Shown piece after piece: positions 8,728-50,908 of a stretch of DNA of 64,000 nucleotides; the first letter of the stretch is position 1; every line of letters starts with the position of its first letter. The notes under the pieces were generated by a model that worked only from the letters and a program-made list of their open reading frames with translations, did no database searches and had not been told where the DNA came from. Source of the stretch: Escherichia coli (GTDB taxonomy: Bacteria; Pseudomonadota; Gammaproteobacteria; Enterobacterales; Enterobacteriaceae); NCBI RefSeq assembly GCF_003334785.1, contig NZ_QOWV01000002.1; one strand, written 5' to 3'. Position numbers and translations under genes: made by a program.

Positions 8728-9402
8728 ATGAAAGGATTATTATCTTTACTCATTTTTTCTATGGTCCTTCCTGCACATGCCGGAATTGTTATCTACGGGA
8801 CGCGCATTATTTACCCGGCAGAAAATAAAGAAGTGATGGTGCAGTTGATGAACCAGGGAAACCGTTCTTCGCTGCTGCAGGCGTGGATTGATGATGGCGA
8901 TACGTCATTACCACCAGAAAAAATTCAGGTTCCTTTCATGTTAACGCCACCAGTGGCAAAAATAGGGGCAAATTCCGGGCAGCAAGTAAAAATCAAAATT
9001 ATGCCGAATAAACTGCCCACTAATAAAGAAAGCATTTTTTATCTGAATGTTCTGGATATTCCACCAAATAGTCCAGAGCAAGAAGGTAAGAATGCACTGA
9101 AGTTTGCGATGCAAAACAGAATTAAGTTGTTTTACCGGCCAGCGGGTATTGCTCCGGTAAATAAAGCGACATTTAAAAAATTGCTGGTAAATCGCAGTGG
9201 CAATGGTTTGGTGATAAAAAATGACTCAGCTAATTGGGTGACGATTTCGGATGTCAAAGCTAATAATGTCAAAGTCAATTATGAAACTATTATGATTGCC
9301 CCCTTAGAAAGTCAGAGTGTTAATGTCAAAAGTAATAATGCAAATAACTGGCATCTGACCATTATCGATGACCATGGCAACTATATTAGTGACAAAATTT
9401 AA
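8728..9402 (+). CDS. yehC: periplasmic fimbrial chaperone (PapD-like)
   Basis: MKGLLSLLIFSMVLPAHAGIVIYGTRIIYPAENKEVMVQLMNQGN... has the typical chaperone N-terminus; start set at the ATG preceded by AAGAGG. Confidence 0.85.
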   Translation: MKGLLSLLIFSMVLPAHAGIVIYGTRIIYPAENKEVMVQLMNQGNRSSLLQAWIDDGDTSLPPEKIQVPFMLTPPVAKIGANSGQQVKIKIMPNKLPTNKESIFYLNVLDIPPNSPEQEGKNALKFAMQNRIKLFYRPAGIAPVNKATFKKLLVNRSGNGLVIKNDSANWVTISDVKANNVKVNYETIMIAPLESQSVNVKSNNANNWHLTIIDDHGNYISDKI

Positions 9403-9417
9403 TTGCAGGAGCTGCCT

Positions 9418-11898
9418 ATGTTGAGAATGACCCCACTTGCATCAGCAATCGTAGCGTTATTGCTCGGCATTGAAGCTTATGCAGCTGAAGAAACCTTTGA
9501 TACCCATTTTATGATAGGTGGAATGAAAGACCAGCAGGTTGCAAATATTCGTCTTGATGATAATCAACCCTTACCGGGGCAGTATGACATCGATATTTAT
9601 GTCAATAAGCAATGGCGCGGGAAATATGAGATTATTGTTAAAGACAACCCGCAAGAAACATGTTTATCAAGAGAAGTTATCAAGCGGTTAGGCATTAATA
9701 GCGATAACTTCGCCAGCGGTAAGCAATGTTTAACATTTGAGCAACTTGTTCAGGGTGGGAGCTATACCTGGGATATCGGGGTTTTTCGTCTCGATTTCAG
9801 TGTCCCGCAGGCCTGGGTGGAAGAACTGGAAAGTGGCTATGTTCCACCGGAAAACTGGGAGCGGGGTATTAATGCGTTTTATACCTCTTATTATCTGAGT
9901 CAGTATTACAGCGACTATAAAGCGTCGGGTAATAACAAGAGTACATATGTACGTTTTAACAGCGGGTTAAATTTACTGGGGTGGCAACTGCATTCTGATG
10001 CCAGTTTCAGTAAAACAAATAACAATCCAGGGGTGTGGAAAAGCAATACCCTGTATCTGGAACGTGGATTTGCCCAACTTCTCGGCACGCTTCGCGTGGG
10101 TGATATGTACACATCAAGCGATATTTTTGATTCTGTTCGCTTCAGAGGTGTGCGGTTGTTTCGTGATATGCAGATGTTGCCTAACTCGAAACAAAATTTT
10201 ACGCCACGGGTGCAGGGGATTGCTCAGAGTAACGCGCTGGTAACTATTGAACAGAATGGTTTTGTCGTTTATCAGAAAGAGGTTCCTCCTGGCCCGTTCG
10301 CGATTACAGATTTGCAGTTGGCCGGTGGTGGAGCAGATCTTGATGTCAGCGTGAAAGAGGCGGACGGCTCGGTAACCACCTATCTGGTGCCTTATGCAGC
10401 GGTGCCAAATATGCTGCAACCCGGCGTGTCGAAATATGATTTAGCGGCGGGTCGTAGCCATATTGAAGGGGCGAGCAAACAAAGTGATTTTGTCCAGGCG
10501 GGTTATCAGTATGGTTTTAATAATTTATTGACGCTGTATGGTGGCTCGATGGTCGCGAATAATTATTACGCGTTTACTTTGGGGGCTGGCTGGAATACAC
10601 GCATTGGTGCCATTTCCGTCGATGCCACTAAGTCGCATAGTAAACAAGACAACGGCGATGTGTTTGACGGGCAAAGTTATCAAATTGCCTACAACAAATT
10701 TGTGAGCCAAACGTCGACGCGTTTTGGTCTGGCGGCCTGGCGTTATTCGTCGCGTGATTACCGGACATTTAACGATCACGTTTGGGCAAACAACAAAGAT
10801 AATTATCGCCGTGATGAAAACGATGTCTATGACATTGCCGATTATTACCAGAACGATTTTGGCCGCAAAAATAGCTTTTCCGCCAATATGAGCCAGTCAT
10901 TGCCAGAAGGTTGGGGGTCTGTGTCATTAAGTACGTTATGGCGAGATTACTGGGGGCGTAGCGGCAGTAGTAAGGATTATCAGTTGAGTTATTCCAACAA
11001 CCTGCGACGGATAAGCTATACCCTCGCGGCAAGCCAGGCTTATGACGAGAATCATCATGAAGAGAAACGTTTTAATATTTTTATATCGATTCCCTTTGAT
11101 TGGGGTGATGACGTTTCGACGCCTCGTCGGCAAATATATATGTCTAACTCAACGACGTTTGATGATCAGGGGTTTGCCTCAAATAATACGGGATTATCAG
11201 GAACAGTAGGGAGTCGGGATCAGTTCAATTATGGTGTCAACCTGAGTCATCAACATCAGGGAAATGAAACGACAGCTGGGGCGAATTTGACCTGGAACGC
11301 GCCGGTTGCGACAGTGAATGGCAGTTATAGTCAGTCGAGTACTTATCGACAGGCTGGAGCCAGTGTTTCAGGGGGCATTGTCGCCTGGTCGGGTGGCGTT
11401 AATCTGGCGAACCGTCTTTCCGAAACGTTTGCTGTGATGAATGCGCCAGGAATTAAAGATGCTTATGTCAATGGGCAAAAATATCGCACAACAAACCGTA
11501 ATGGAGTGGTGATATACGACGGAATGACACCTTATCGGGAAAATCACCTGATGCTGGATGTGTCGCAAAGCGATAGCGAAGCAGAATTACGTGGCAACCG
11601 GAAAATTGCCGCCCCTTATCGCGGCGCGGTTGTACTGGTTAATTTTGATACCGATCAGCGCAAGCCATGGTTTATAAAAGCGTTAAGAGCAGATGGGCAA
11701 TCATTAACGTTTGGTTATGAAGTCAATGATATCCATGGTCATAATATTGGCGTTGTCGGCCAGGGAAGTCAGTTATTTATTCGCACCAATGAAGTACCGC
11801 CATCGGTTAATGTGGCAATTGATAAGCAACAAGGACTTTCATGCACAATCACCTTCGGTAAAGAGATTGATGAAAGTAGAAATTATATTTGCCAGTAA
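9418..11898 (+). CDS. yehB: fimbrial outer-membrane usher
   Basis: ~826 aa, signal peptide MLRMTPLASAIVALLLGIEAYA, size and position typical of an usher; AGGAG before ATG at 9418. Confidence 0.85.
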   Translation: MLRMTPLASAIVALLLGIEAYAAEETFDTHFMIGGMKDQQVANIRLDDNQPLPGQYDIDIYVNKQWRGKYEIIVKDNPQETCLSREVIKRLGINSDNFASGKQCLTFEQLVQGGSYTWDIGVFRLDFSVPQAWVEELESGYVPPENWERGINAFYTSYYLSQYYSDYKASGNNKSTYVRFNSGLNLLGWQLHSDASFSKTNNNPGVWKSNTLYLERGFAQLLGTLRVGDMYTSSDIFDSVRFRGVRLFRDMQMLPNSKQNFTPRVQGIAQSNALVTIEQNGFVVYQKEVPPGPFAITDLQLAGGGADLDVSVKEADGSVTTYLVPYAAVPNMLQPGVSKYDLAAGRSHIEGASKQSDFVQAGYQYGFNNLLTLYGGSMVANNYYAFTLGAGWNTRIGAISVDATKSHSKQDNGDVFDGQSYQIAYNKFVSQTSTRFGLAAWRYSSRDYRTFNDHVWANNKDNYRRDENDVYDIADYYQNDFGRKNSFSANMSQSLPEGWGSVSLSTLWRDYWGRSGSSKDYQLSYSNNLRRISYTLAASQAYDENHHEEKRFNIFISIPFDWGDDVSTPRRQIYMSNSTTFDDQGFASNNTGLSGTVGSRDQFNYGVNLSHQHQGNETTAGANLTWNAPVATVNGSYSQSSTYRQAGASVSGGIVAWSGGVNLANRLSETFAVMNAPGIKDAYVNGQKYRTTNRNGVVIYDGMTPYRENHLMLDVSQSDSEAELRGNRKIAAPYRGAVVLVNFDTDQRKPWFIKALRADGQSLTFGYEVNDIHGHNIGVVGQGSQLFIRTNEVPPSVNVAIDKQQGLSCTITFGKEIDESRNYICQ

Positions 11899-38815: not shown

Positions 38816-39577
38816 TCAATTGAGTATCGATTTTCGTTCGAATATAACCATAACGCCAAGCGTCAAATGTAAGTCATCTATATGTGATTCGTATTCATAT
38901 TGGTCAGCATCAGGAGGTAGTAAATGCTCTGCTGCTGTAAAAACATCAATTGTAACAGATATATCGTCTGGAATTTCTTCATTTAATTCGGATATGTATT
39001 TTTTATATTTGTTTTTTAATTTCCTTATCATGTCTTCCTTATGGTGGATTGTAGTGCAGTAATTTTTTTTAGTTGAATCATTGTATGAATGGAATGAACA
39101 GTTTAATGCTAGGCCAAGACTTGAATTTCCTGTAGGGCCTGTGTGTTTAAAGTATTCAAGATTTCTTCTTATGTCAGAAAATAAAAGACTTTTACAGGGG
39201 GCATTTCCTTTAACTTCTATTGCACATATTGGAATGTCGAAAAATGGTCTGCTGTCCAATATGGCAATATCAATTCTGCCTGATCTTGTTGTGTTTGTGT
39301 TTTTTCTGACAGTTTTTTTTGAGAATGTTTTTTGGGGGTCAGACCGTTTCGATAAAGGAACTGTTGCATTAATGAATTTATTTGTATGGTACTCAAATAT
39401 AACTTTGTAATCACCATGGCGAAAAGATTTTATTTCTAACAACGATAGACCTATAGATACGGTAGCTACATATTCAGTGTTTATTTTTGCACCAGACCTG
39501 AAATCCATTAAATAAGTTGCGTCGGCTGACTTTTTCATTCCATCTTTTACAGCTTTCACAATATCCATGTTATTCAT
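38816..39577 (-). CDS. tin: Tin-like protein (P2 T-even phage exclusion)
   Basis: 253-aa ORF in AT-rich DNA immediately downstream of old on the same strand, the position and size of P2 tin. Confidence 0.7.
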   Translation of the reverse strand: MNNMDIVKAVKDGMKKSADATYLMDFRSGAKINTEYVATVSIGLSLLEIKSFRHGDYKVIFEYHTNKFINATVPLSKRSDPQKTFSKKTVRKNTNTTRSGRIDIAILDSRPFFDIPICAIEVKGNAPCKSLLFSDIRRNLEYFKHTGPTGNSSLGLALNCSFHSYNDSTKKNYCTTIHHKEDMIRKLKNKYKKYISELNEEIPDDISVTIDVFTAAEHLLPPDADQYEYESHIDDLHLTLGVMVIFERKSILN

Positions 39578-39751
39578 ATCAACACCTTTTATATTCCAGA
39601 ATTATAAATCTTAATGATTGATTTGTTTGTGTGTTTAGGTTACTAGATTGACGTACTTATAGCACATTCTGATTTTGAAATCACCATCCTTGGGTAAAGC
39701 ACAGCCTATCACTATTGGTTTAGTACTGTGCTGTAATAGTATCAGATTAAG

Positions 39752-41512
39752 TTAAATCCATTTTATGAAATCTTCCATTTCATCATATTTTTTTATTACT
39801 GCTCTAACATCTTTGCTTTCATCACATAAACAATCTAAAAGACTATCCCATTCAGTTTGTTTTTTACCAAATCCATAAACAGCCTCTATATCACCGGATT
39901 TCCATATATAGATTCCGTTATCTTTCAATTTTTGATGTATTTCATGTATATGCTTTTGTGTTTTTTCATGGTTACATATTTTGATGAAGTCTTTGCTTGA
40001 AATGCTTTTGAATGACTCAAAAGTAGTAACTTTTGTATTTAAACTAAGCTCTCCTGAGTTGATTGATTCAATCAAAGCAGTCAATAGATTATCACATTCA
40101 GTACTAAGTAAGTCTTTATGCTCTGTTAATAGAATATTTGATAAGAAATCACAATCAGCTAGAATCCTTGTTTTTATGCCGATGGCATTGATGATTTGTG
40201 ACATCTTAAATAAACTACCCTTACCGTCAACGGCAACAATGCAGATTTTACTCGGGTTGAGTTCATGTCCGTTAATTTTTTTATAAAGTGCATATAGAAC
40301 GTTTGTCTCTGTTTTCCCTTCAACAAGCAAAACTTCTTCAGAAAATAAAAGGTATGATGAATTAGAAAGCGTGAATGCTGAGTGCAATTGCGGTGATGAA
40401 GATTTATATAATTCTTCGATTTTTTCAGATATAGTCTTCCTTGCTATGGTTCCATTAGAATCCTTACAAACCTGAATCGCATTTGCTGCATGCTTTGCAG
40501 AAAGCATACTGGCTGAGTGAGTTGATATTATAACCTGATACCCTGATTCACTTAATGTGACAAGTGATTCTCTGACAGAATTAATGGCTGAAGGGTGTAA
40601 ATATAACTCAGGTTCATCAATGAAAATCAAAGTGTTTGATTTTTTTGATTCGCTGTTTTCTTTTTTTATTTCGGCCAGGTATTGAATTAATGCCATTTGA
40701 ATGGAACGTTGTGTTCCGTGACCAAATCGGCTGATATCTCTCATTACCGGTTCATCTTCCCGAGACTCAAAAACTTTCAGAGTGCCGGATTTAAATATCT
40801 CATCTAATGTCGGTGTGGGAAAGTGTAACTTTACACTTACGTCGGGAAAAAATTGGTTTACTTTTTTATTTACGCCTGAGTCTATTTTATTAAGGCTTTC
40901 TAATCTGTTCTCACCGTTGTGAGAAAGATATTTACCTATTTCTGATATGTTTTTTGAAAATTTTTCTTCGTGTTCTTGTTTTATTTCAGAAACAATTGCG
41001 GAAAGTATCTTTCCTATTGTGGTCGTGTTTTTGCATTTTGTTGAGTCTTCGACAGCGTCAGACATTGCAGGGATATGAATTGGTTCCGGAAATATATTGG
41101 AGATTGCACCATCTATGCCGCCAGGGTTTTTCTTCCACGTGGTACCGTCATATACATCCAGACTTTTTTTGGCTTTTCCTGTTTCCTTATTAAATTCCTG
41201 TCTTCTTGCAAAGGTAAGAGTCCCGTCAATTATAAACGGAGCTATTTTTTGTTGATTCTCTTCTGTTAACAAAGACAGAGTATCATCTGTTATACCTTGA
41301 ATAACGCCTTCAACGGATACGGGGTGTGTAGGATCGTACACATCTGATTCTGAAATCAAAGAGCCATCTAACAGCCACTTAATTGCTAAGATAATATTTG
41401 ATTTTCCTGCGTTATTATAACCAACTAAAGCAGTGAAGGGGCGCAAAATAGCCGATGTTGACTTACAAGAACGAAAGTTGCTAATTGAAACTGAAGCAAG
41501 ACGTACAGTCAT
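39752..41512 (-). CDS. old: OLD-family nuclease (ABC-type ATPase plus Toprim domain)
   Basis: 586 aa; Walker A GYNNAGKSN, Walker B LIFIDEPELYLHP, C-terminal Toprim-like LLVEGKTE...AVDGKGS...ADCDF; AT-rich. Confidence 0.9.
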   Translation of the reverse strand: MTVRLASVSISNFRSCKSTSAILRPFTALVGYNNAGKSNIILAIKWLLDGSLISESDVYDPTHPVSVEGVIQGITDDTLSLLTEENQQKIAPFIIDGTLTFARRQEFNKETGKAKKSLDVYDGTTWKKNPGGIDGAISNIFPEPIHIPAMSDAVEDSTKCKNTTTIGKILSAIVSEIKQEHEEKFSKNISEIGKYLSHNGENRLESLNKIDSGVNKKVNQFFPDVSVKLHFPTPTLDEIFKSGTLKVFESREDEPVMRDISRFGHGTQRSIQMALIQYLAEIKKENSESKKSNTLIFIDEPELYLHPSAINSVRESLVTLSESGYQVIISTHSASMLSAKHAANAIQVCKDSNGTIARKTISEKIEELYKSSSPQLHSAFTLSNSSYLLFSEEVLLVEGKTETNVLYALYKKINGHELNPSKICIVAVDGKGSLFKMSQIINAIGIKTRILADCDFLSNILLTEHKDLLSTECDNLLTALIESINSGELSLNTKVTTFESFKSISSKDFIKICNHEKTQKHIHEIHQKLKDNGIYIWKSGDIEAVYGFGKKQTEWDSLLDCLCDESKDVRAVIKKYDEMEDFIKWI

Positions 41513-44701: not shown

Positions 44702-44874
44702 GAATACCTCGCCGTGATGAATACACGGCAAGGCTACTGAGTCGCGCCCCGCGATTCGCTAAGGTGCTGTTGTGTCAGTGATAAGCCATCCGGGACTGAT
44801 GGCGGAGGATGCGCATCGTCGGGAAACTGATGCCGACATGTGACTCCTCTAATCACTATTCAGGACTCCTGACA

Positions 44875-45729
44875 ATGGCAAAAAAAGTCTCAAAATTCTT
44901 TCGTATCGGCGTTGAGGGTGACACCTGTGACGGGCGTGTCATCAGTGCGCAGGATATTCAGGAAATGGCCGAAACCTTTGACCCGCGAGTCTATGGTTGC
45001 CGCATTAACCTGGAACATCTGCGCGGCATCCTGCCTGACGGTATTTTTAAGCGTTATGGCGATGTGGTCGAACTGAAGGCCGAAAAGATTGACGATGATT
45101 CGGTGCTGAAAGGCAAATGGGCGCTGTTTGCGAAAATCACCCCGACCGATGACCTTATCGCGATGAACAAGGCCGCGCAGAAGGTCTACACCTCAATGGA
45201 AATTCAGCCGAACTTTGCCAATACCGGCAAATGTTATCTGGTGGGTCTGGCCGTCACCGATGACCCGGCAAGCCTCGGCACGGAATACCTGGAATTCTGC
45301 CGCACGGCAAAACACAACCCTCTGAACCGCTTCAAATTAAGCCCTGAAAACCTGATTTCAGTGGCAACGCCTGTTGAGCTGGAATTTGAAGACCTGCCTG
45401 AAACCGTGTTCACCGCCCTGACCGAAAAGGTGAAGTCCATTTTTGGCCGCAAACAGGCCAGCGATGACGCCCGTCTGAATGACGTGCATGAAGCGGTGAC
45501 CGCTGTTGCTGAACATGTGCAGGAAAAACTGAGCGCCACTGAGCAGCGCCTCGCTGAGATGGAAACCGCTTTTTCCGCACTTAAGCAGGATGTGACTGAC
45601 AGGGCGGATGAAACCAGCCAGGCATTCACCCGCCTGAAAAACAGTCTCGACCACACCGAAAGTCTGACCCAGCAGCGCCGCAGCAAGGCCACCGGTGGTG
45701 GCGGTGACGCCCTGATGACGAACTGCTGA
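44875..45729 (+). CDS. O: capsid scaffolding protein (P2 gpO)
   Basis: MAKKVSKFFRIGVEGDTCDGRVISAQDIQEMAETFDPRVYG..., 284 aa, divergent from Q-P. Confidence 0.85.
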   Translation: MAKKVSKFFRIGVEGDTCDGRVISAQDIQEMAETFDPRVYGCRINLEHLRGILPDGIFKRYGDVVELKAEKIDDDSVLKGKWALFAKITPTDDLIAMNKAAQKVYTSMEIQPNFANTGKCYLVGLAVTDDPASLGTEYLEFCRTAKHNPLNRFKLSPENLISVATPVELEFEDLPETVFTALTEKVKSIFGRKQASDDARLNDVHEAVTAVAEHVQEKLSATEQRLAEMETAFSALKQDVTDRADETSQAFTRLKNSLDHTESLTQQRRSKATGGGGDALMTNC

Positions 45730-45787
45730 CCGGCGTCAGTCAGTCCGGGAAAACCTTCACGATTAACCCTTAATTTCAGGAAAAACT

Positions 45788-46861
45788 ATGCGCCAGGAAA
45801 CCCGCTTTAAATTTAATGCCTACCTGTCCCGTGTTGCCGAACTGAACGGCATCGACGCCGGTGATGTGTCGAAAAAATTCACCGTTGAACCGTCGGTCAC
45901 CCAGACCCTGATGAACACCATGCAGGAGTCCTCTGACTTTCTGACCCGCATCAACATTGTGCCGGTCAGCGAAATGAAAGGGGAAAAAATTGGCATCGGT
46001 GTCACCGGCTCCATCGCCAGCACCACCGACACCGCCGGTGGCACCGAGCGTCAGCCGAAGGACTTCTCGAAGCTGGCGTCAAACAAGTACGAATGCGACC
46101 AGATTAACTTCGATTTTTATATCCGCTACAAAACGCTGGACCTGTGGGCGCGTTATCAGGATTTCCAGCTCCGTGTCCGTAACGCCATTATCAAACGCCA
46201 GTCCCTTGATTTAATCATGGCCGGTTTTAACGGCGTGAGGCGTGCCGAAACCTCTGACCGCAGCAGCAATCCGATGCTGCAGGATGTGGCGGTCGGCTGG
46301 CTGCAGAAATACCGCAATGAAGCCCCGGCGCGCGTGATGAGCAAGGTCACTGACGAGGAAGGGCACACCACCTCTGAGGTTATCCGCGTGGGTAAGGGCG
46401 GTGATTATGCCAGCCTTGACGCACTGGTGATGGATGCGACCAACAACCTGATTGAGCCGTGGTATCAGGAAGACCCTGACCTTGTGGTGATTGTGGGACG
46501 TCAGCTACTGGCGGACAAGTATTTTCCCATCGTCAACAAGGAGCAGGACAACAGCGAAATGCTGGCCGCTGACGTCATCATCAGCCAGAAACGCATCGGT
46601 AACCTGCCGGCGGTACGCGTCCCGTACTTCCCGGCGGATGCGATGCTCATCACAAAGCTGGAAAACCTGTCCATCTACTACATGGATGACAGCCATCGCC
46701 GCGTGATTGAGGAAAACCCGAAACTCGACCGCGTGGAGAACTACGAGTCAATGAACATTGATTACGTGGTGGAAGACTACGCCGCCGGTTGTCTGGTGGA
46801 AAAAATTAAGGTCGGTGATTTCTCCACACTGGCTAAAGCGACCGCAGAGCCGGGAGCGTAA
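45788..46861 (+). CDS. N: major capsid protein (P2 gpN)
   Basis: 357-aa ORF following O. Confidence 0.85.
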   Translation: MRQETRFKFNAYLSRVAELNGIDAGDVSKKFTVEPSVTQTLMNTMQESSDFLTRINIVPVSEMKGEKIGIGVTGSIASTTDTAGGTERQPKDFSKLASNKYECDQINFDFYIRYKTLDLWARYQDFQLRVRNAIIKRQSLDLIMAGFNGVRRAETSDRSSNPMLQDVAVGWLQKYRNEAPARVMSKVTDEEGHTTSEVIRVGKGGDYASLDALVMDATNNLIEPWYQEDPDLVVIVGRQLLADKYFPIVNKEQDNSEMLAADVIISQKRIGNLPAVRVPYFPADAMLITKLENLSIYYMDDSHRRVIEENPKLDRVENYESMNIDYVVEDYAAGCLVEKIKVGDFSTLAKATAEPGA

Positions 46862-46864
46862 CCG

Positions 46865-47608
46865 ATGACGAGTCCCGCACAGCGCCACATGATGCGGGTC
46901 TCGGCAGCGATGACCGCGCAGCGGGAAGCCGCCCCGCTGCGACATGCAACTGTCTATGAGCAGATGCTGGTTAAGCTCGCCGCAGACCAGCGCACACTGA
47001 AAGCGATTTATTCAAAAGAGCTGAAGGCCGCGAAAAAACGCGAACTGCTGCCGTTCTGGTTGCCGTGGGTGAACGGCGTGCTGGAGCAGGGCAAAGGTGC
47101 ACAGGATGACATTCTGATGACGGTCATGCTGTGGCGTCTGGATACCGGCGATATTGCCGGTGCGCTGGAGATTGCCCGTTATGCCCTGAAATACGGTCTG
47201 ACCATGCCGGGTAAACACCGCCGCACCCCGCCGTACATGTTCACCGAGGAGGTGGCACTTGCGGCCATGCGCGCCCACGCTGCCGGTGAGTCTGTGGATC
47301 CCCGCCTGCTGACGGACACCCTCGAACTGACCGCCACGGCTGACATGCCTGATGAAGTGCGCGCAAAGCTGCACAAAATCACCGGTCTGTTTCTGCGTGA
47401 CGCTGGTGATGCCGCCGGTGCGCTGGCTCACCTGCAGCGTGCGACACAGCTCGACTGTCAGGCAGGCGTCAAAAAAGAGATTGAACGACTGGAGCGGGAG
47501 CTGAAACCGAAGCCGGAGCCGCAACCAAAAGCGGCCACCCGCGCCCCGCGTAAGACCCGGAGCGTGACACCGGCAAAACGTGGACGCCCGAAAAAGAAAG
47601 CCAGTTAA
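46865..47608 (+). CDS. M: terminase small/endonuclease subunit (P2 gpM)
   Basis: 247-aa ORF with very basic C-terminal tail (KPKPEPQPKAATRAPRKTRSVTPAKRGRPKKKAS). Confidence 0.8.
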   Translation: MTSPAQRHMMRVSAAMTAQREAAPLRHATVYEQMLVKLAADQRTLKAIYSKELKAAKKRELLPFWLPWVNGVLEQGKGAQDDILMTVMLWRLDTGDIAGALEIARYALKYGLTMPGKHRRTPPYMFTEEVALAAMRAHAAGESVDPRLLTDTLELTATADMPDEVRAKLHKITGLFLRDAGDAAGALAHLQRATQLDCQAGVKKEIERLERELKPKPEPQPKAATRAPRKTRSVTPAKRGRPKKKAS

Positions 47609-47647
47609 CAACCGAATGCGCCCCGCGCCAGGGCGGCACGCCGGTCA

Positions 47648-48076
47648 GTGAGGGTGACCGGACTTATTGAATCGCTGTCACCGTCAGGGCGTCGGCGACT
47701 GAGCGCCGAACTGGCGAAACGTCTGCGGCAGAGTCAGCAGCGCCGGGTGATGGCACAGAAAGCCCCGGACGGCACACCCTACGCACCACGCCAGCAGCAG
47801 AGCGCCAGAAAAAAGACCGATCGCGTTAAGCGAAAAATGTTTGCGAAACTTATCACCAGTCGTTTTTTGCATATCCGCGCCAGCCCGGAACAGGCATCAA
47901 TGGAGTTTTTCGGCGGGAAGTCACCGAAAATCGCCAGCGTGCATCAGTTCGGTCTGTCGGAAGAAACCCGGAAAGACGGTAAGAAAATTGATTATCCGGC
48001 GCGTCCTCTGCTCGGCTTTACCGGTGAGGATGTGCAGATGATTGAAGAGATTATCCTGGCTCACCTTGAGCGTTAG
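47648..48076 (+). CDS. late morphogenesis protein; by position gpL (head completion), but the C-terminal HQFG...PARP motif resembles the gpS/virion-morphogenesis family
   Basis: 142-aa ORF starting at GTG 47648 with no ATG in frame upstream; identity as L versus S cannot be settled without a search. Confidence 0.55.
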   Translation: MRVTGLIESLSPSGRRRLSAELAKRLRQSQQRRVMAQKAPDGTPYAPRQQQSARKKTDRVKRKMFAKLITSRFLHIRASPEQASMEFFGGKSPKIASVHQFGLSEETRKDGKKIDYPARPLLGFTGEDVQMIEEIILAHLER

Positions 48077-48106
48077 TTTTATCCAGGCAGAGGCTGATGC
48101 GCAATT

Positions 48107-48140
48107 AAACATTGAGCGCCGTGCTGGTCGCTCAATGTTT
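48107..48140. other. perfect 12-bp inverted repeat (hairpin) at the junction between GC-rich late genes and the AT-rich cargo
   Basis: AAACATTGAGCG - 10 nt - CGCTCAATGTTT; no adjacent T-tract on either strand. Confidence 0.5.
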
Positions 48141-48146
48141 AGAGGT

Positions 48147-48932
48147 TTATGAGTGGTTTTTATTTGATGCTTTGTATTCTAAAACCTTCTTATTGGCGTA
48201 AAAGAATTTTGTATATGACAGGAATATAAGCAGACCTGAAATGAAATAGATTAGGGATATTATTAATAATGTTTTTCTGTGGCTGTTATTATCTTTAATC
48301 TCCTGACTTAACCATTCGGAGTCCTCCTCGTTTAGCTGTAAGAGCTTATTGCAGGCGATCTCAGGAAGTGTGTCTTTTATAAATACGTTTTGCAGACTCT
48401 TGCAATCGGCAAGGCTATAAGTTTTATTAAATTCAACTGTTTTATTTTTGAAGGATAAAAGAACTTTGTCACTATAAACATAGTACATCATATTTTTATA
48501 TGGTATACCTATGGCATCCCTTACTATAGCGGATTGTTCATTGTGTATGTAACATGCGAAGATAATATAAAGAATTCCGGCCAGGACTGCACTCATTGTT
48601 TTTGTGATGCATGGCGGTTCTGTTATGTCTCCCCAGAAGCGAGTAAGGAAAAAATCCGATGTTTTTAGTTTTCCATCAATCAGCCCCTGCTGTATCATTC
48701 TCACATCTTCGATGCCTGATACATTGATTCCGTTAAGTGTTTTAAATAGTTGAATATCGCGCCACTCGCGGTCCAGTCTTTTTAATTTTTTGTCTGAATA
48801 TCCAAATTTGAAATAATGTGCAATAAGCCTCATAAGGTTACTTTTACCAAAGCTAAAAAATGCTAATACTGCAAAGACCAAAAGATACAAAACGATTAGC
48901 TCCCACACATTAGTCACATTATAGCTGACCAT
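48147..48932 (-). CDS. hypothetical membrane protein (261 aa, 3 predicted transmembrane helices), foreign AT-rich cargo of unknown function
   Basis: ORF with strong Shine-Dalgarno (AAGGAGAG 7 nt before ATG); hydrophobic segments WELIVLYLLVFAVLAFFSF, MSAVLAGILYIIFACYI, KTLLIISLIYFISGLLIFLSY; AT-rich codon usage unlike the flanking phage genes. Confidence 0.6.
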   Translation of the reverse strand: MVSYNVTNVWELIVLYLLVFAVLAFFSFGKSNLMRLIAHYFKFGYSDKKLKRLDREWRDIQLFKTLNGINVSGIEDVRMIQQGLIDGKLKTSDFFLTRFWGDITEPPCITKTMSAVLAGILYIIFACYIHNEQSAIVRDAIGIPYKNMMYYVYSDKVLLSFKNKTVEFNKTYSLADCKSLQNVFIKDTLPEIACNKLLQLNEEDSEWLSQEIKDNNSHRKTLLIISLIYFISGLLIFLSYTKFFYANKKVLEYKASNKNHS

Positions 48933-49015
48933 TACGCTCTCCTTGAATGTTGTCTGGTGGTTCTACAAATGAATCCAGATAGCATAACTTTTATATATTG
49001 TGCAATCTCACATGC

Positions 49016-49651
49016 ATGAACACTCTCGCAAATATTCAGGAACTCGCGCGCGCACTGCGCAACATGATCCGCACCGGCATTATCGTTGAAACCGACCTTA
49101 ACGCCGGTCGCTGCCGTGTGCAGACCGGCGGCATGTGCACCGACTGGCTTCAGTGGCTGACCCATCGCGCCGGACGTTCGCGCACATGGTGGGCACCTTC
49201 CGTGGGGGAACAGGTGCTGATTCTGGCCGTGGGCGGTGAACTCGACACGGCGTTCGTTCTGCCGGGGATTTATTCCGGCGATAACCCTGCGCCGTCTGCG
49301 TCGGCTGATGCCCTGCATATCCGTTTCCCTGACGGGGCGGTGATTGAGTATGAGCCCGAAACCAGTGCACTCACGGTAAGCGGAATTAAAACGGCCAGCG
49401 TGACGGCTTCTGATTCTGTTACTGCCACGGTGCCGGTGGTCACGGTGAAAGCATCAACCCGCGTCACCCTGGACACACCAGAGGTGGTCTGCACCAACAG
49501 GCTGATTACCGGCACGCTGGAAGTGCAGAAGGGCGGGACGATGCGCGGCAACATTGAACACACCGGCGGTGAACTCTCATCAAACGGTAAGGTACTGCAT
49601 ACCCATAAACACCCCGGCGACAGCGGCGGCACAACCGGGAGTCCTCTATGA
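49016..49651 (+). CDS. V: baseplate spike/assembly protein (P2 gpV)
   Basis: MNTLANIQELARALRNMIRTGIIVETDLNAGRCRVQTGG..., 211 aa. Confidence 0.85.
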   Translation: MNTLANIQELARALRNMIRTGIIVETDLNAGRCRVQTGGMCTDWLQWLTHRAGRSRTWWAPSVGEQVLILAVGGELDTAFVLPGIYSGDNPAPSASADALHIRFPDGAVIEYEPETSALTVSGIKTASVTASDSVTATVPVVTVKASTRVTLDTPEVVCTNRLITGTLEVQKGGTMRGNIEHTGGELSSNGKVLHTHKHPGDSGGTTGSPL

Positions 49652-49995
49652 CAGCGCGTTATCTCGGAATGAATCGCAGTGATGGCCTGACTGTCACTGA
49701 CCTTGAGCATATCAGCCAGAGTATCGGCGATATCCTGCGCACACCGGTCGGCTCACGGGTGATGCGTCGTGATTACGGCTCGTTGCTGGCGTCAATGATT
49801 GACCAGCCGCAGACTCCGGCGCTTGAGTTGCAGATTAAGGTCGCCTGTTACATGGCAGTGCTGAAATGGGAACCCCGCGTCACCCTGTCATCCGTCACCA
49901 CGGCGCGCAGTTTTGACGGGCGAATGACGGTCACGTTAACCGGTCAGCACAACGACACCGGCCAGCCACTTTCGTTAACCATCCCTGTGAGTTGA
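49648..49995 (+). CDS. W: baseplate wedge protein (P2 gpW, GPW/gp25 family)
   Basis: 115 aa, overlaps the V stop. Confidence 0.85.
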   Translation: MTARYLGMNRSDGLTVTDLEHISQSIGDILRTPVGSRVMRRDYGSLLASMIDQPQTPALELQIKVACYMAVLKWEPRVTLSSVTTARSFDGRMTVTLTGQHNDTGQPLSLTIPVS

Positions 49996-49999
49996 AACC

Positions 50000-50908
50000 A
50001 TGCCGATTATCGACCTGAACCAGCTACCCGCACCGGATGTGGTCGAGGAGCTGGACTTTGAAACCATTCTTGCCGAACGCAAGGCGACACTGATTTCCCT
50101 TTACCCGGAAGACCAGCAGGAGGCGGTCGCCCGTACCCTGACGCTGGAATCCGAACCTCTCGTCAAACTGCTGGAGGAAAATGCTTATCGTGAGCTTATC
50201 TGGCGTCAGCGTGTGAATGAGGCCGCACGGGCGGTAATGCTGGCCTGTGCCGCCGGTAATGACCTTGATGTGATTGGTGCCAATTACAACACCACGCGCC
50301 TGATTATCACCCCGGCAGATGATTCGACCCTCCCGCCGACACCGGCAGTGATGGAATCTGACACCGATTATCGTCTGCGTATTCAGCAGGCGTTTGAGGG
50401 CTTAAGCGTCGCCGGGTCGGTGGGTGCCTATCAGTATCATGGTCGCAGTGCCGACGGGCGTGTCGCAGATATCTCTGTCACCAGTCCGTCTCCGGCCTGC
50501 GTCACTATCTCCGTGCTGTCACGTGAAAATAACGGTGTGGCATCCGAAGACCTGCTGGCGGTGGTGCGTAACGCCCTTAATGGCGAGGACGTCAGGCCGG
50601 TGGCCGACCGCGTGACCGTGCAGTCTGCCGCCATTGTTGAATACCAGATAAACGCCACGCTTTACCTTTACCCTGGTCCCGAAAGCGAACCCATCCGCGC
50701 CGCCGCCGTGAAAAAACTGGAAGCGTATATCACGGCACAGCACCGGCTGGGGCGTGACATCCGTCTGTCTGCCATTTATGCCGCTTTGCATGTGGAAGGC
50801 GTGCAGCGTGTCGAGCTGGCCGCACCACTGGCCGACATTGTGCTCAACAGTACGCAGGCGTCTTTCTGCACCGAATACAGCGTCGTGACCGGAGGCTCGG
50901 ATGAGTGA
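50000..50908 (+). CDS. J: baseplate protein (P2 gpJ)
   Basis: 302-aa ORF after W. Confidence 0.85.
   Translation: MPIIDLNQLPAPDVVEELDFETILAERKATLISLYPEDQQEAVARTLTLESEPLVKLLEENAYRELIWRQRVNEAARAVMLACAAGNDLDVIGANYNTTRLIITPADDSTLPPTPAVMESDTDYRLRIQQAFEGLSVAGSVGAYQYHGRSADGRVADISVTSPSPACVTISVLSRENNGVASEDLLAVVRNALNGEDVRPVADRVTVQSAAIVEYQINATLYLYPGPESEPIRAAAVKKLEAYITAQHRLGRDIRLSAIYAALHVEGVQRVELAAPLADIVLNSTQASFCTEYSVVTGGSDE

Follow-up and report, generated by a model that had tools for sequence, protein, structure and literature searches.

The window, by which we mean the whole stretch of 64,000 nucleotides (nt) analysed here from Escherichia coli contig NZ_QOWV01000002.1, carries a P2-type prophage in whose late region a single gene, orf30, stands apart from its neighbours. 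Between the stop codon of the tail-completion gene S (48076) and the start of the baseplate spike gene V (49016), the list of open reading frames (ORFs) holds only one frame of at least 60 amino acids (aa), which begins with ATG, runs from 48932 down to 48147 on the minus strand and encodes a 261-aa protein predicted to cross the inner membrane three times. The original prediction, made from the letters of the sequence, had described a lone minus-strand ORF of this length divergent from V, preceded by a strong Shine-Dalgarno sequence and much richer in AT than the genes beside it, and each of these points held on closer inspection. The Shine-Dalgarno sequence, AAGGAGAG, read from the reverse complement at 48937-48944 (minus strand), lies 4 nt 5' of the orf30 start codon. 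The G+C content (GC) of the ORF is 34.9%, against 56.3% for the sequence to its left (44809-48076) and 55.3% for that to its right (49016-52645), and across the entire block from 48077 to 49015 it stays at 31-40%, compared with 53-64% in the flanking sequence. V itself (49016-49651, plus strand) forms the right flank and was identified by its matches to baseplate profiles in PHROG and by its 98% aa identity to P2 gpV. No RNA family in Rfam was matched between 47600 and 49300, and orf30 is a real coding gene: all eight alleles that we sampled are intact with a ratio of nonsynonymous to synonymous substitution rates (dN/dS) of 0.46, and at least 80% of its length is covered in 461 of the 464 complete E. 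coli genomes that match it.

The feature is almost certainly the orf30 cassette known from bacteriophage P2. This AT-rich block holds one gene, is optional in P2-type phages, takes the place of their short S-V intergenic region and is read in the opposite direction to the late operons. At the nucleotide level, the 1.65-kb stretch from S through orf30 to V shares 95.0% identity with the P2 reference record, and with other P2 isolates the figure rises to as much as 98.7%. Within it, orf30 shares 93% DNA identity with its P2 counterpart (55 of 786 nt differ) and 87.7% protein identity with AAD03281.1 (229 of 261 residues), and the protein aligns with PHROG 2407, a family annotated as of ‘unknown function’, over its full length (E-value 1.7e-142, residues 1-261 on profile positions 1-261 of 261). 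The P2 record AF063097 labels the gene ‘orf30, Orf30, nonessential’ (9439-10224) and places it between a putative O-operon terminator and the V-promoter activator site. P2 and the window agree in gene, slot, strand, protein length, flanking terminator hairpin and V-promoter site, and differ in 32 aa, mostly in the transmembrane (TM) helices, and in the absence of genes L to R from the window prophage. The P2 gene has been described as inserted between S and V and of unknown function (Lavigne et al., PMC2771037), its position is one of three loci in P2-like phages that gather horizontally acquired genes (PMC3091744), and phage R18C carries a different ORF at the same position (PMC6823313). Because the P2 record, PHROG 2407 and this literature all match orf30, the gene is already known and has been rediscovered here; it is not a new element, and to call it unrecognised, as had been done, was mistaken. 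The view of it as a gene of undescribed function was borne out.

The original prediction had also placed the gene in the slot that, in a P2-type phage, houses the genes for lysis and tail completion. This appearance is an artefact, which arises because approximately 3 kb, from L to R, has been deleted to the left of the cassette; orf30 in fact occupies its native slot between S and V. Missing from the prophage are L, X, Y, K, lysA, lysB, lysC and R of P2, along with about the first nine codons of S, and at the deletion junction (approximately 47640-47652) sequence 3' of the terminase gene M, which ends at 47608, is fused to S at around codon 10. The late gene seen to end at 48076 is therefore present as described, and turns out to be P2 gene S with its 5' end missing (47648-48076, plus strand; PHROG 26): its alignment to P2 begins at 8943, and the P2 gene starts at 8915. 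Of 5426 complete E. coli genomes, only two gave a contiguous match over the M-S junction. The loss of L to R means that the prophage is unable to complete heads or tails, or to lyse. An intact orf30 is nevertheless present in three damaged prophages, namely the one in the window with its M-S deletion, that of E. coli B, and that of AMA1167, where V is truncated. In E. coli B-LamR (L024, NZ_CP115179 2101623-2104208), the defective prophage has part of the portal gene fused to part of S, but retains orf30 intact (89.7% nt identity), with V and W after it.

A comparison with phage Wphi, whose slot is empty, defines the limits of the cassette. Homology between P2 or the window and Wphi stops right past the S stop codon (TAGTT) and restarts at the ATG of V, and the cassette therefore comprises the whole of 48077-49015, P2's own activator site for the V promoter included. 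The content of this interval varies among P2-type phages, being orf30, nothing or unrelated cargo, which bears out the suggestion that the slot would prove variable when other P2-family prophages were compared. Of the 76 phage records in which the S and V flanks are closely related, 20 contain orf30, and the slot was empty (an S-V span of about 776 bp) in at least 41 of the 60 phage records listed. Complete E. coli genomes contain 481 copies of orf30, spread over 464 genomes, as against 1810 copies of V in 1581 genomes. Hence orf30 is optional in P2-type phages and is not a core gene of the family; core status would have spoken against the idea of cargo. The isolated phages carry the P2-type orf30 allele only.

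Unrelated genes have been installed in the same slot elsewhere. R18C carries ORF16 there (L021 743-1483), a 246-aa soluble protein with CxxC...H and CxxC motifs, encoded at 36% GC on the late strand, and phiCTX carries orf15 (L028 4461-5189), a 242-aa soluble protein, also on the late strand, at 39% GC in a phage of 64% GC. A 445-aa DUF4062 protein is encoded between S and an Orf30-family gene at a further locus (L016 7877-9214), and the Burkholderia phage AB4 has a DNA methylase in the S-V slot. These genes share the position of orf30, and those measured are also AT-rich relative to their phage, whereas their proteins are unrelated to Orf30. R18C ORF16 and phiCTX orf15 were considered as divergent Orf30 relatives and rejected, as neither matched the family profile, and PADLOC returned no convincing match for either of them or for the DUF4062 protein.

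The presence of one compositionally foreign gene at a module junction of a P2-type prophage is thus supported both by GC content and by presence and absence. Its description as moron-type cargo stands in part. Distribution is patchy, with boundaries at the S stop and the V start; GC content is 35% against 55-60% in the surroundings, a contrast repeated at seven of seven loci; and, of the signals of independent transcription, a terminator-like hairpin is present, while no sigma-70-like promoter scores better than 8/12. Since the family recurs at the same position in divergent P2-like prophages, orf30 is more than a one-off moron.

The wider Orf30 family is small. A search of 1.84 billion representative proteins returned no more than 39 clusters, of which about 25 align over the full length, with identities of 22-34%, and word-index searches added few further relatives. 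All the distant members tested match PHROG 2407, and in an alignment of 27 members (A1) the length, the three hydrophobic segments, a motif in the first loop and a pair of cysteines are all kept. The conserved first-loop residues are D59, Q61, G68-I-N-V, D76, G87, F94 and G101; of the two cysteines, C194 never varies and C177 is shared by 26 of the 27 members. When the genomic contexts of ten subfamilies were examined, seven lay directly beside V, six of these clearly between S and V and divergent from V; of the remainder, one lay beside a fragment of gpR in a prophage remnant and two were on short contigs with no phage gene in view. A P2 tail-gene context was accordingly seen in eight of the ten, and the arrangement between S and V, divergent from V, is found in the window, in P2 and at five distant homologue loci. 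At these distant loci the Orf30 relatives are 25-34% identical to the window protein while V is 60-84% identical to the window V, and every family member compared has a GC content of 30-35% (25-37% at third codon positions) beside a V of 54-63%. By these comparisons the family is slot-faithful, fast-evolving and constantly AT-rich, and is not a one-off recent import. The divergent alleles of loci L002 and L014 were not found in the complete E. coli genomes. One homologue (P0020, L007 and L008) has V fragments on both sides, as if the cassette had inserted into or beside a rearranged V.

Links to described protein families are distant. The Pfam family DUF6216 (PF19723), which groups uncharacterised proteobacterial membrane proteins, is matched by three of the 27 family members at an E-value of 0.001 or below (best 1.3e-05) and by six at 0.1 or below, and a member from Sodalis sp. 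RH24 (P0017) was already annotated as PF19723. The window protein itself matches no family in Pfam at an E-value of 10 or below, and none in NCBIfam. As DUF6216 has no known function, the connection does not explain Orf30.

The three TM helices called in the original prediction were recovered as Kyte-Doolittle hydrophobic segments at residues 4-33, 107-131 and 219-243 and as helices in an AlphaFold model. A model built from the single sequence was unusable (predicted local distance difference test, pLDDT, 50.6) and was replaced by one based on alignment A1, with a pLDDT of 88.1 and a predicted template modelling score (pTM) of 0.76. In this model a helix at 8-40 containing TM1 is followed by a small helical domain (48-94) and a second helix (109-134, TM2), and the second half of the protein comprises four strands (141-173), helices at 174-179 and 189-198, and a long helix (202-260) that contains TM3. 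The distribution of charge is also informative: the N-terminus is uncharged, the first loop contains 14 lysines and arginines with a net charge of +4, the second loop has a net charge of -1 and the C-terminal tail one of +3. Three TM helices with this positive-inside bias predict an inner-membrane location, and because of the positive-inside rule, together with the tendency of structural disulfides to form in the periplasm, we place the N-terminus outside, the first loop inside, the second loop in the periplasm and the C-terminus inside.

Orf30 is thus probably a three-pass inner-membrane protein with an N-out/C-in topology, a helical cytoplasmic loop of some 80 residues, a periplasmic strand-and-helix domain of some 90 residues that holds the cysteine pair, and a lysine-rich cytoplasmic tail. 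On the minus strand of the window, TM1 (codons 8-28) corresponds to 48849-48911 and is preceded by an N-terminus without positive charge, predicted to be periplasmic. The first loop (codons 29-108; 48609-48848), with the small helical domain, is predicted to be cytoplasmic from its charge and, with the lowest column entropy in A1, is the best-conserved part of the family. TM2 (codons 109-131) lies at 48540-48608. The second loop (codons 132-221; 48270-48539) forms the four-strand, two-helix domain with C177 and C194, and its cysteine conservation, modelled structure and net negative charge suggest that it is periplasmic and disulfide-bonded. TM3 (codons 222-244) lies at 48201-48269 and the lysine-rich tail (codons 245-261), probably cytoplasmic, at 48150-48200. 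One distant homologue (P0013, L004 66-752 and 991-1743) is encoded divergently from a gene for a DsbA/thioredoxin-like protein, on a short contig that shows no phage gene, and this neighbour is suggestive given the conserved cysteine pair in the predicted periplasmic loop of Orf30.

A Foldseek search of AFDB50 with the model gave 71 matches at an E-value of 0.001 or below, almost all of them labelled ‘uncharacterized’ and belonging to Enterobacterales, Pasteurellaceae, Pseudomonas and Burkholderiales; the PDB and BFVD yielded no specific structural match, and no characterised fold relative was found in them. Two lytic functions were considered and rejected. Residues 106-185 were aligned by phmmer with the lysozyme structures 3hde and 4zpu at an E-value of about 2, over the motifs IPYK and KTY..A.CK.L, which raised the prospect of a signal-anchor-release (SAR) endolysin of the GH24 lysozyme type. 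We rejected this link because the match vanishes when the family profile is used, neither motif is conserved across A1, and of the catalytic Glu-Asp-Thr triad the positions aligned with Glu and Asp hold Arg and Asn. A class I holin would share the three TM helices and N-out/C-in topology in around 100 aa, whereas Orf30, at 261 aa, possesses structured loops 80 and 90 residues long, is encoded on the opposite strand and lies outside the lysis cassette; the P2 record gives gene Y as the holin.

Selection on orf30 was measured over eight alleles, comprising those of the window, P2, two other phages and four E. coli prophages. All are intact at 261 codons, with a mean dS of 0.116 and a mean dN of 0.054; the resulting dN/dS compares with 0.13 for both V and S at similar dS. 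The gene is under purifying selection, and constraint is unevenly spread along the protein. When polymorphism was pooled by region over pairs that are not independent, so that the values are descriptive only, pN/pS was 0.37 for the first loop, 0.27 for the second and 0.15 for the C-terminal tail, compared with 1.25 over codons 1-28 (the seven N-terminal residues and TM1) and 1.88 for TM3, where sites are few. In TM1, 67% of sites vary among the eight alleles. The E. coli alleles fall into two N-terminal/TM1 haplotypes, MVSYNVTNVWGL... and MFSDNVTNAWWF... (window 48540-48911, codons 8-131), and that of RM12581 is P2-like in its first half and E. coli B-like in its second; such mosaic-looking alleles suggest recombination between them.

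Two signals in the cassette bear on how orf30 may be expressed. Between the convergent S and orf30 genes lies a hairpin (48105-48142), which corresponds to the putative rho-independent terminator of the O operon in the P2 annotation (9397-9433). It folds at -24.8 kcal/mol on the plus strand (z -2.6) and at -22.4 kcal/mol on the minus strand (z -3.7), and could stop transcription from either direction. With this hairpin separating it from S, and with its opposite orientation, orf30 appears to form a transcription unit apart from the late operons. On the other side, the activator (Ogr) binding site of the late promoter P_V lies inside the cassette (48947-48974, plus strand), as judged by moving the P2 feature at 10239-10266 by the coordinate offset. 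It sits 15 bp upstream of the orf30 start codon, in sequence that is nearly identical in P2 and the window. The distance from the centre of the activator site to the orf30 ATG is about 28 bp in P2 and 55-110 bp elsewhere, and such variable spacing does not fit a shared mechanism of divergent late activation, which would act from -55. Expression of orf30 in the lysogen is presumed in the reading of function that we favour.

Taken together, these features lead us to a tentative reading of function, in which Orf30 is an accessory envelope protein that serves the lysogen, most likely through superinfection exclusion at the inner membrane. The analogy that we favour is with P22 SieA, HK97 gp15 and T4 Imm, which are small multi-pass inner-membrane exclusion proteins encoded by single accessory genes and acting on genome entry; no similarity in sequence or fold came to light, as Orf30 matches only phrog_2407 among the PHROG profiles and nothing specific in the PDB or BFVD. 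In this model Orf30 would benefit the lysogen rather than virion production, and would interfere with the entry of incoming phage genomes at the inner membrane. The periplasmic domain would meet the incoming tail tip, the proteins ejected with the genome, or a host membrane factor that these need, and the first cytoplasmic loop would hold the conserved core activity or a partner contact. A broader and more doubtful proposal is that the Orf30 family (PHROG 2407 and, distantly, DUF6216) represents an unrecognised class of inner-membrane phage-exclusion proteins in Peduoviridae, which would maintain it beside the tail-spike gene V as a cassette that evolves fast and never loses its AT-richness. 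Such proteins may act on other P2-like or contractile-tailed phages at genome entry, and their phenotype would be masked by repressor immunity in standard tests.

P2 itself offers a second comparison, since its old, tin and Z/fun genes have demonstrated exclusion phenotypes (lambda, T-even, T5). Like orf30, each occupies a set position in P2-like genomes without being present in all of them, and they are regarded as horizontally acquired (PMC3091744); unlike them, orf30 matches no defence model. The window prophage also encodes P2 Tin, at 38816-39577 (PADLOC E-value 8.8e-98), and Old, at 39752-41512 (1.3e-214). Both lie on the minus strand (38816-41512) in the principal defence hotspot of P2, which separates replication gene A from the portal gene.

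A number of observations weigh against an exclusion function. The exclusion phenotypes classically described for P2 lysogens are assigned to old, tin and fun, and none is known to map to orf30. The link to defence that had been proposed found no backing in PADLOC-DB 2.0, where no family matched Orf30 at an E-value of 1 or below, or any of seven distant relatives at 0.1 or below, and among PHROG profiles only phrog_2407 was matched, with none of the annotated superinfection-exclusion families. Neither an experimental phenotype for orf30 nor a function for orf30 or DUF6216 was found in the literature searched, which did not extend to the P2 review of Christie and Calendar. The best sigma-70-like promoter upstream of orf30 and of five distant homologues reached no more than 8 of 12 matches, and the AT-rich gene may be silenced in the lysogen. 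Variation in the protein consists largely of conservative changes in the TM helices, which relaxed constraint would explain as well as an arms race. Finally, Rousset et al. 2022 made four P2-like lysogens, of which AC1 alone was reported to protect, an effect that its hotspot system reproduced when cloned; orf30 is carried by at least two phages of that study, AC1 and SIAC10.

Several of the same data can be read differently. It is possible, if unlikely, that Orf30 is an envelope protein of lysogenic conversion not aimed at phages, altering some inner-membrane or periplasmic property of the host such as tolerance of stress, colicins or antimicrobials, transport or colonisation. Such a role would draw on the same anatomy and selection data as the exclusion reading, it would suit both the survival of an intact gene in three degraded prophages and the failure of any defence family to match Orf30, and the homologue beside the DsbA-like gene, in no recognisable phage context, also sits comfortably with it. 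However, the near confinement of the family to one P2-like slot (eight of ten contexts) is better explained by a phage-related role than by a general host function, and no homology to a known conversion factor was found.

Less likely again is a non-essential helper of the lytic cycle, a membrane protein that would tune the timing of lysis, assist a step of tail or baseplate assembly, or exclude secondary infection late in the cycle. The position of the family inside the late region, beside V and kept across divergent P2-like phages, points this way, as does the P_V activator site so close to the start codon, which entangles the transcription of orf30 physically with a late promoter; no promoter of a lysogen type was found. 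Set against this are the viability of about three quarters of the close P2 relatives without orf30 and the non-essential label in the P2 annotation, the orientation of the gene opposite to all the late operons, the misfit between activator-site spacing and divergent activation from -55, and the intact copies in prophages that can no longer lyse or assemble.

We consider it improbable that Orf30 is an abortive-infection or otherwise toxic membrane effector, inert in the membrane until a phage trigger causes it to permeabilise or depolarise the cell. In favour of this, orf30 is a lone gene for a membrane protein, occupies a variable slot of the prophage and is AT-rich cargo like other P2 defence genes, of which old and tin are present in this prophage, and in other phages the slot holds different, candidate defence-like cargo such as the Cys/His-motif protein of R18C. 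Yet Orf30 bears no resemblance to a known effector, its cassette has no sensor or partner gene, and three TM helices with large structured loops and a predicted disulfide domain suggest binding or scaffolding rather than pore formation; no support comes from the lysogens of Rousset et al. 2022. Very improbable is a functionless, decaying foreign ORF that persists through linkage to the P_V promoter region in the cassette: the lack of a reported phenotype since the P2 genome record described the gene, the absence of a clear promoter, and a dN/dS above that of the neighbours, with TM1 and TM3 near or above 1, would be expected of it, but the overall ratio of 0.46 and values of 0.15-0.37 in the loops and tail, the retention of at least 80% of the length in 461 of 464 genomes and of all eight sampled alleles intact, the length, architecture, cysteine pair and first-loop motifs kept by members at 25% identity, and the confident AlphaFold model are not.

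Elsewhere in the prophage, the tail-fibre region (51509-54824) resembles an invertible segment in place of P2 Z/fun. It comprises a short tail-fibre gene (51509-52645), an assembly gene (52647-53087), an inverted alternative fibre C-terminus with its own assembly gene (53059-54203, minus strand) and then a DNA invertase (54225-54824; PHROG 125, E-value 1.5e-101). Near the right end of the prophage, a 453-aa ORF (61760-63121, minus strand) matches PHROG 2895, of unknown function, from end to end, has no match in PADLOC, and may also be cargo.

Few genes in the model phage P2 still lack a function, and orf30, which is among them, is carried by around 9% of complete E. coli genomes (464 of 5426), E. 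coli B among them. To what was already known of it our analysis makes modest additions, namely its fidelity to one slot across divergent P2-like prophages, its AT-richness throughout the family, the purifying selection that acts on it, and a confident model that predicts a three-pass membrane protein with a conserved cytoplasmic loop and a periplasmic cysteine pair. If Orf30 does prove to be an exclusion factor, or one of envelope conversion, the map of P2 genes would be more complete, and a so far uncharacterised membrane-protein fold that is found across the Proteobacteria would acquire a function.

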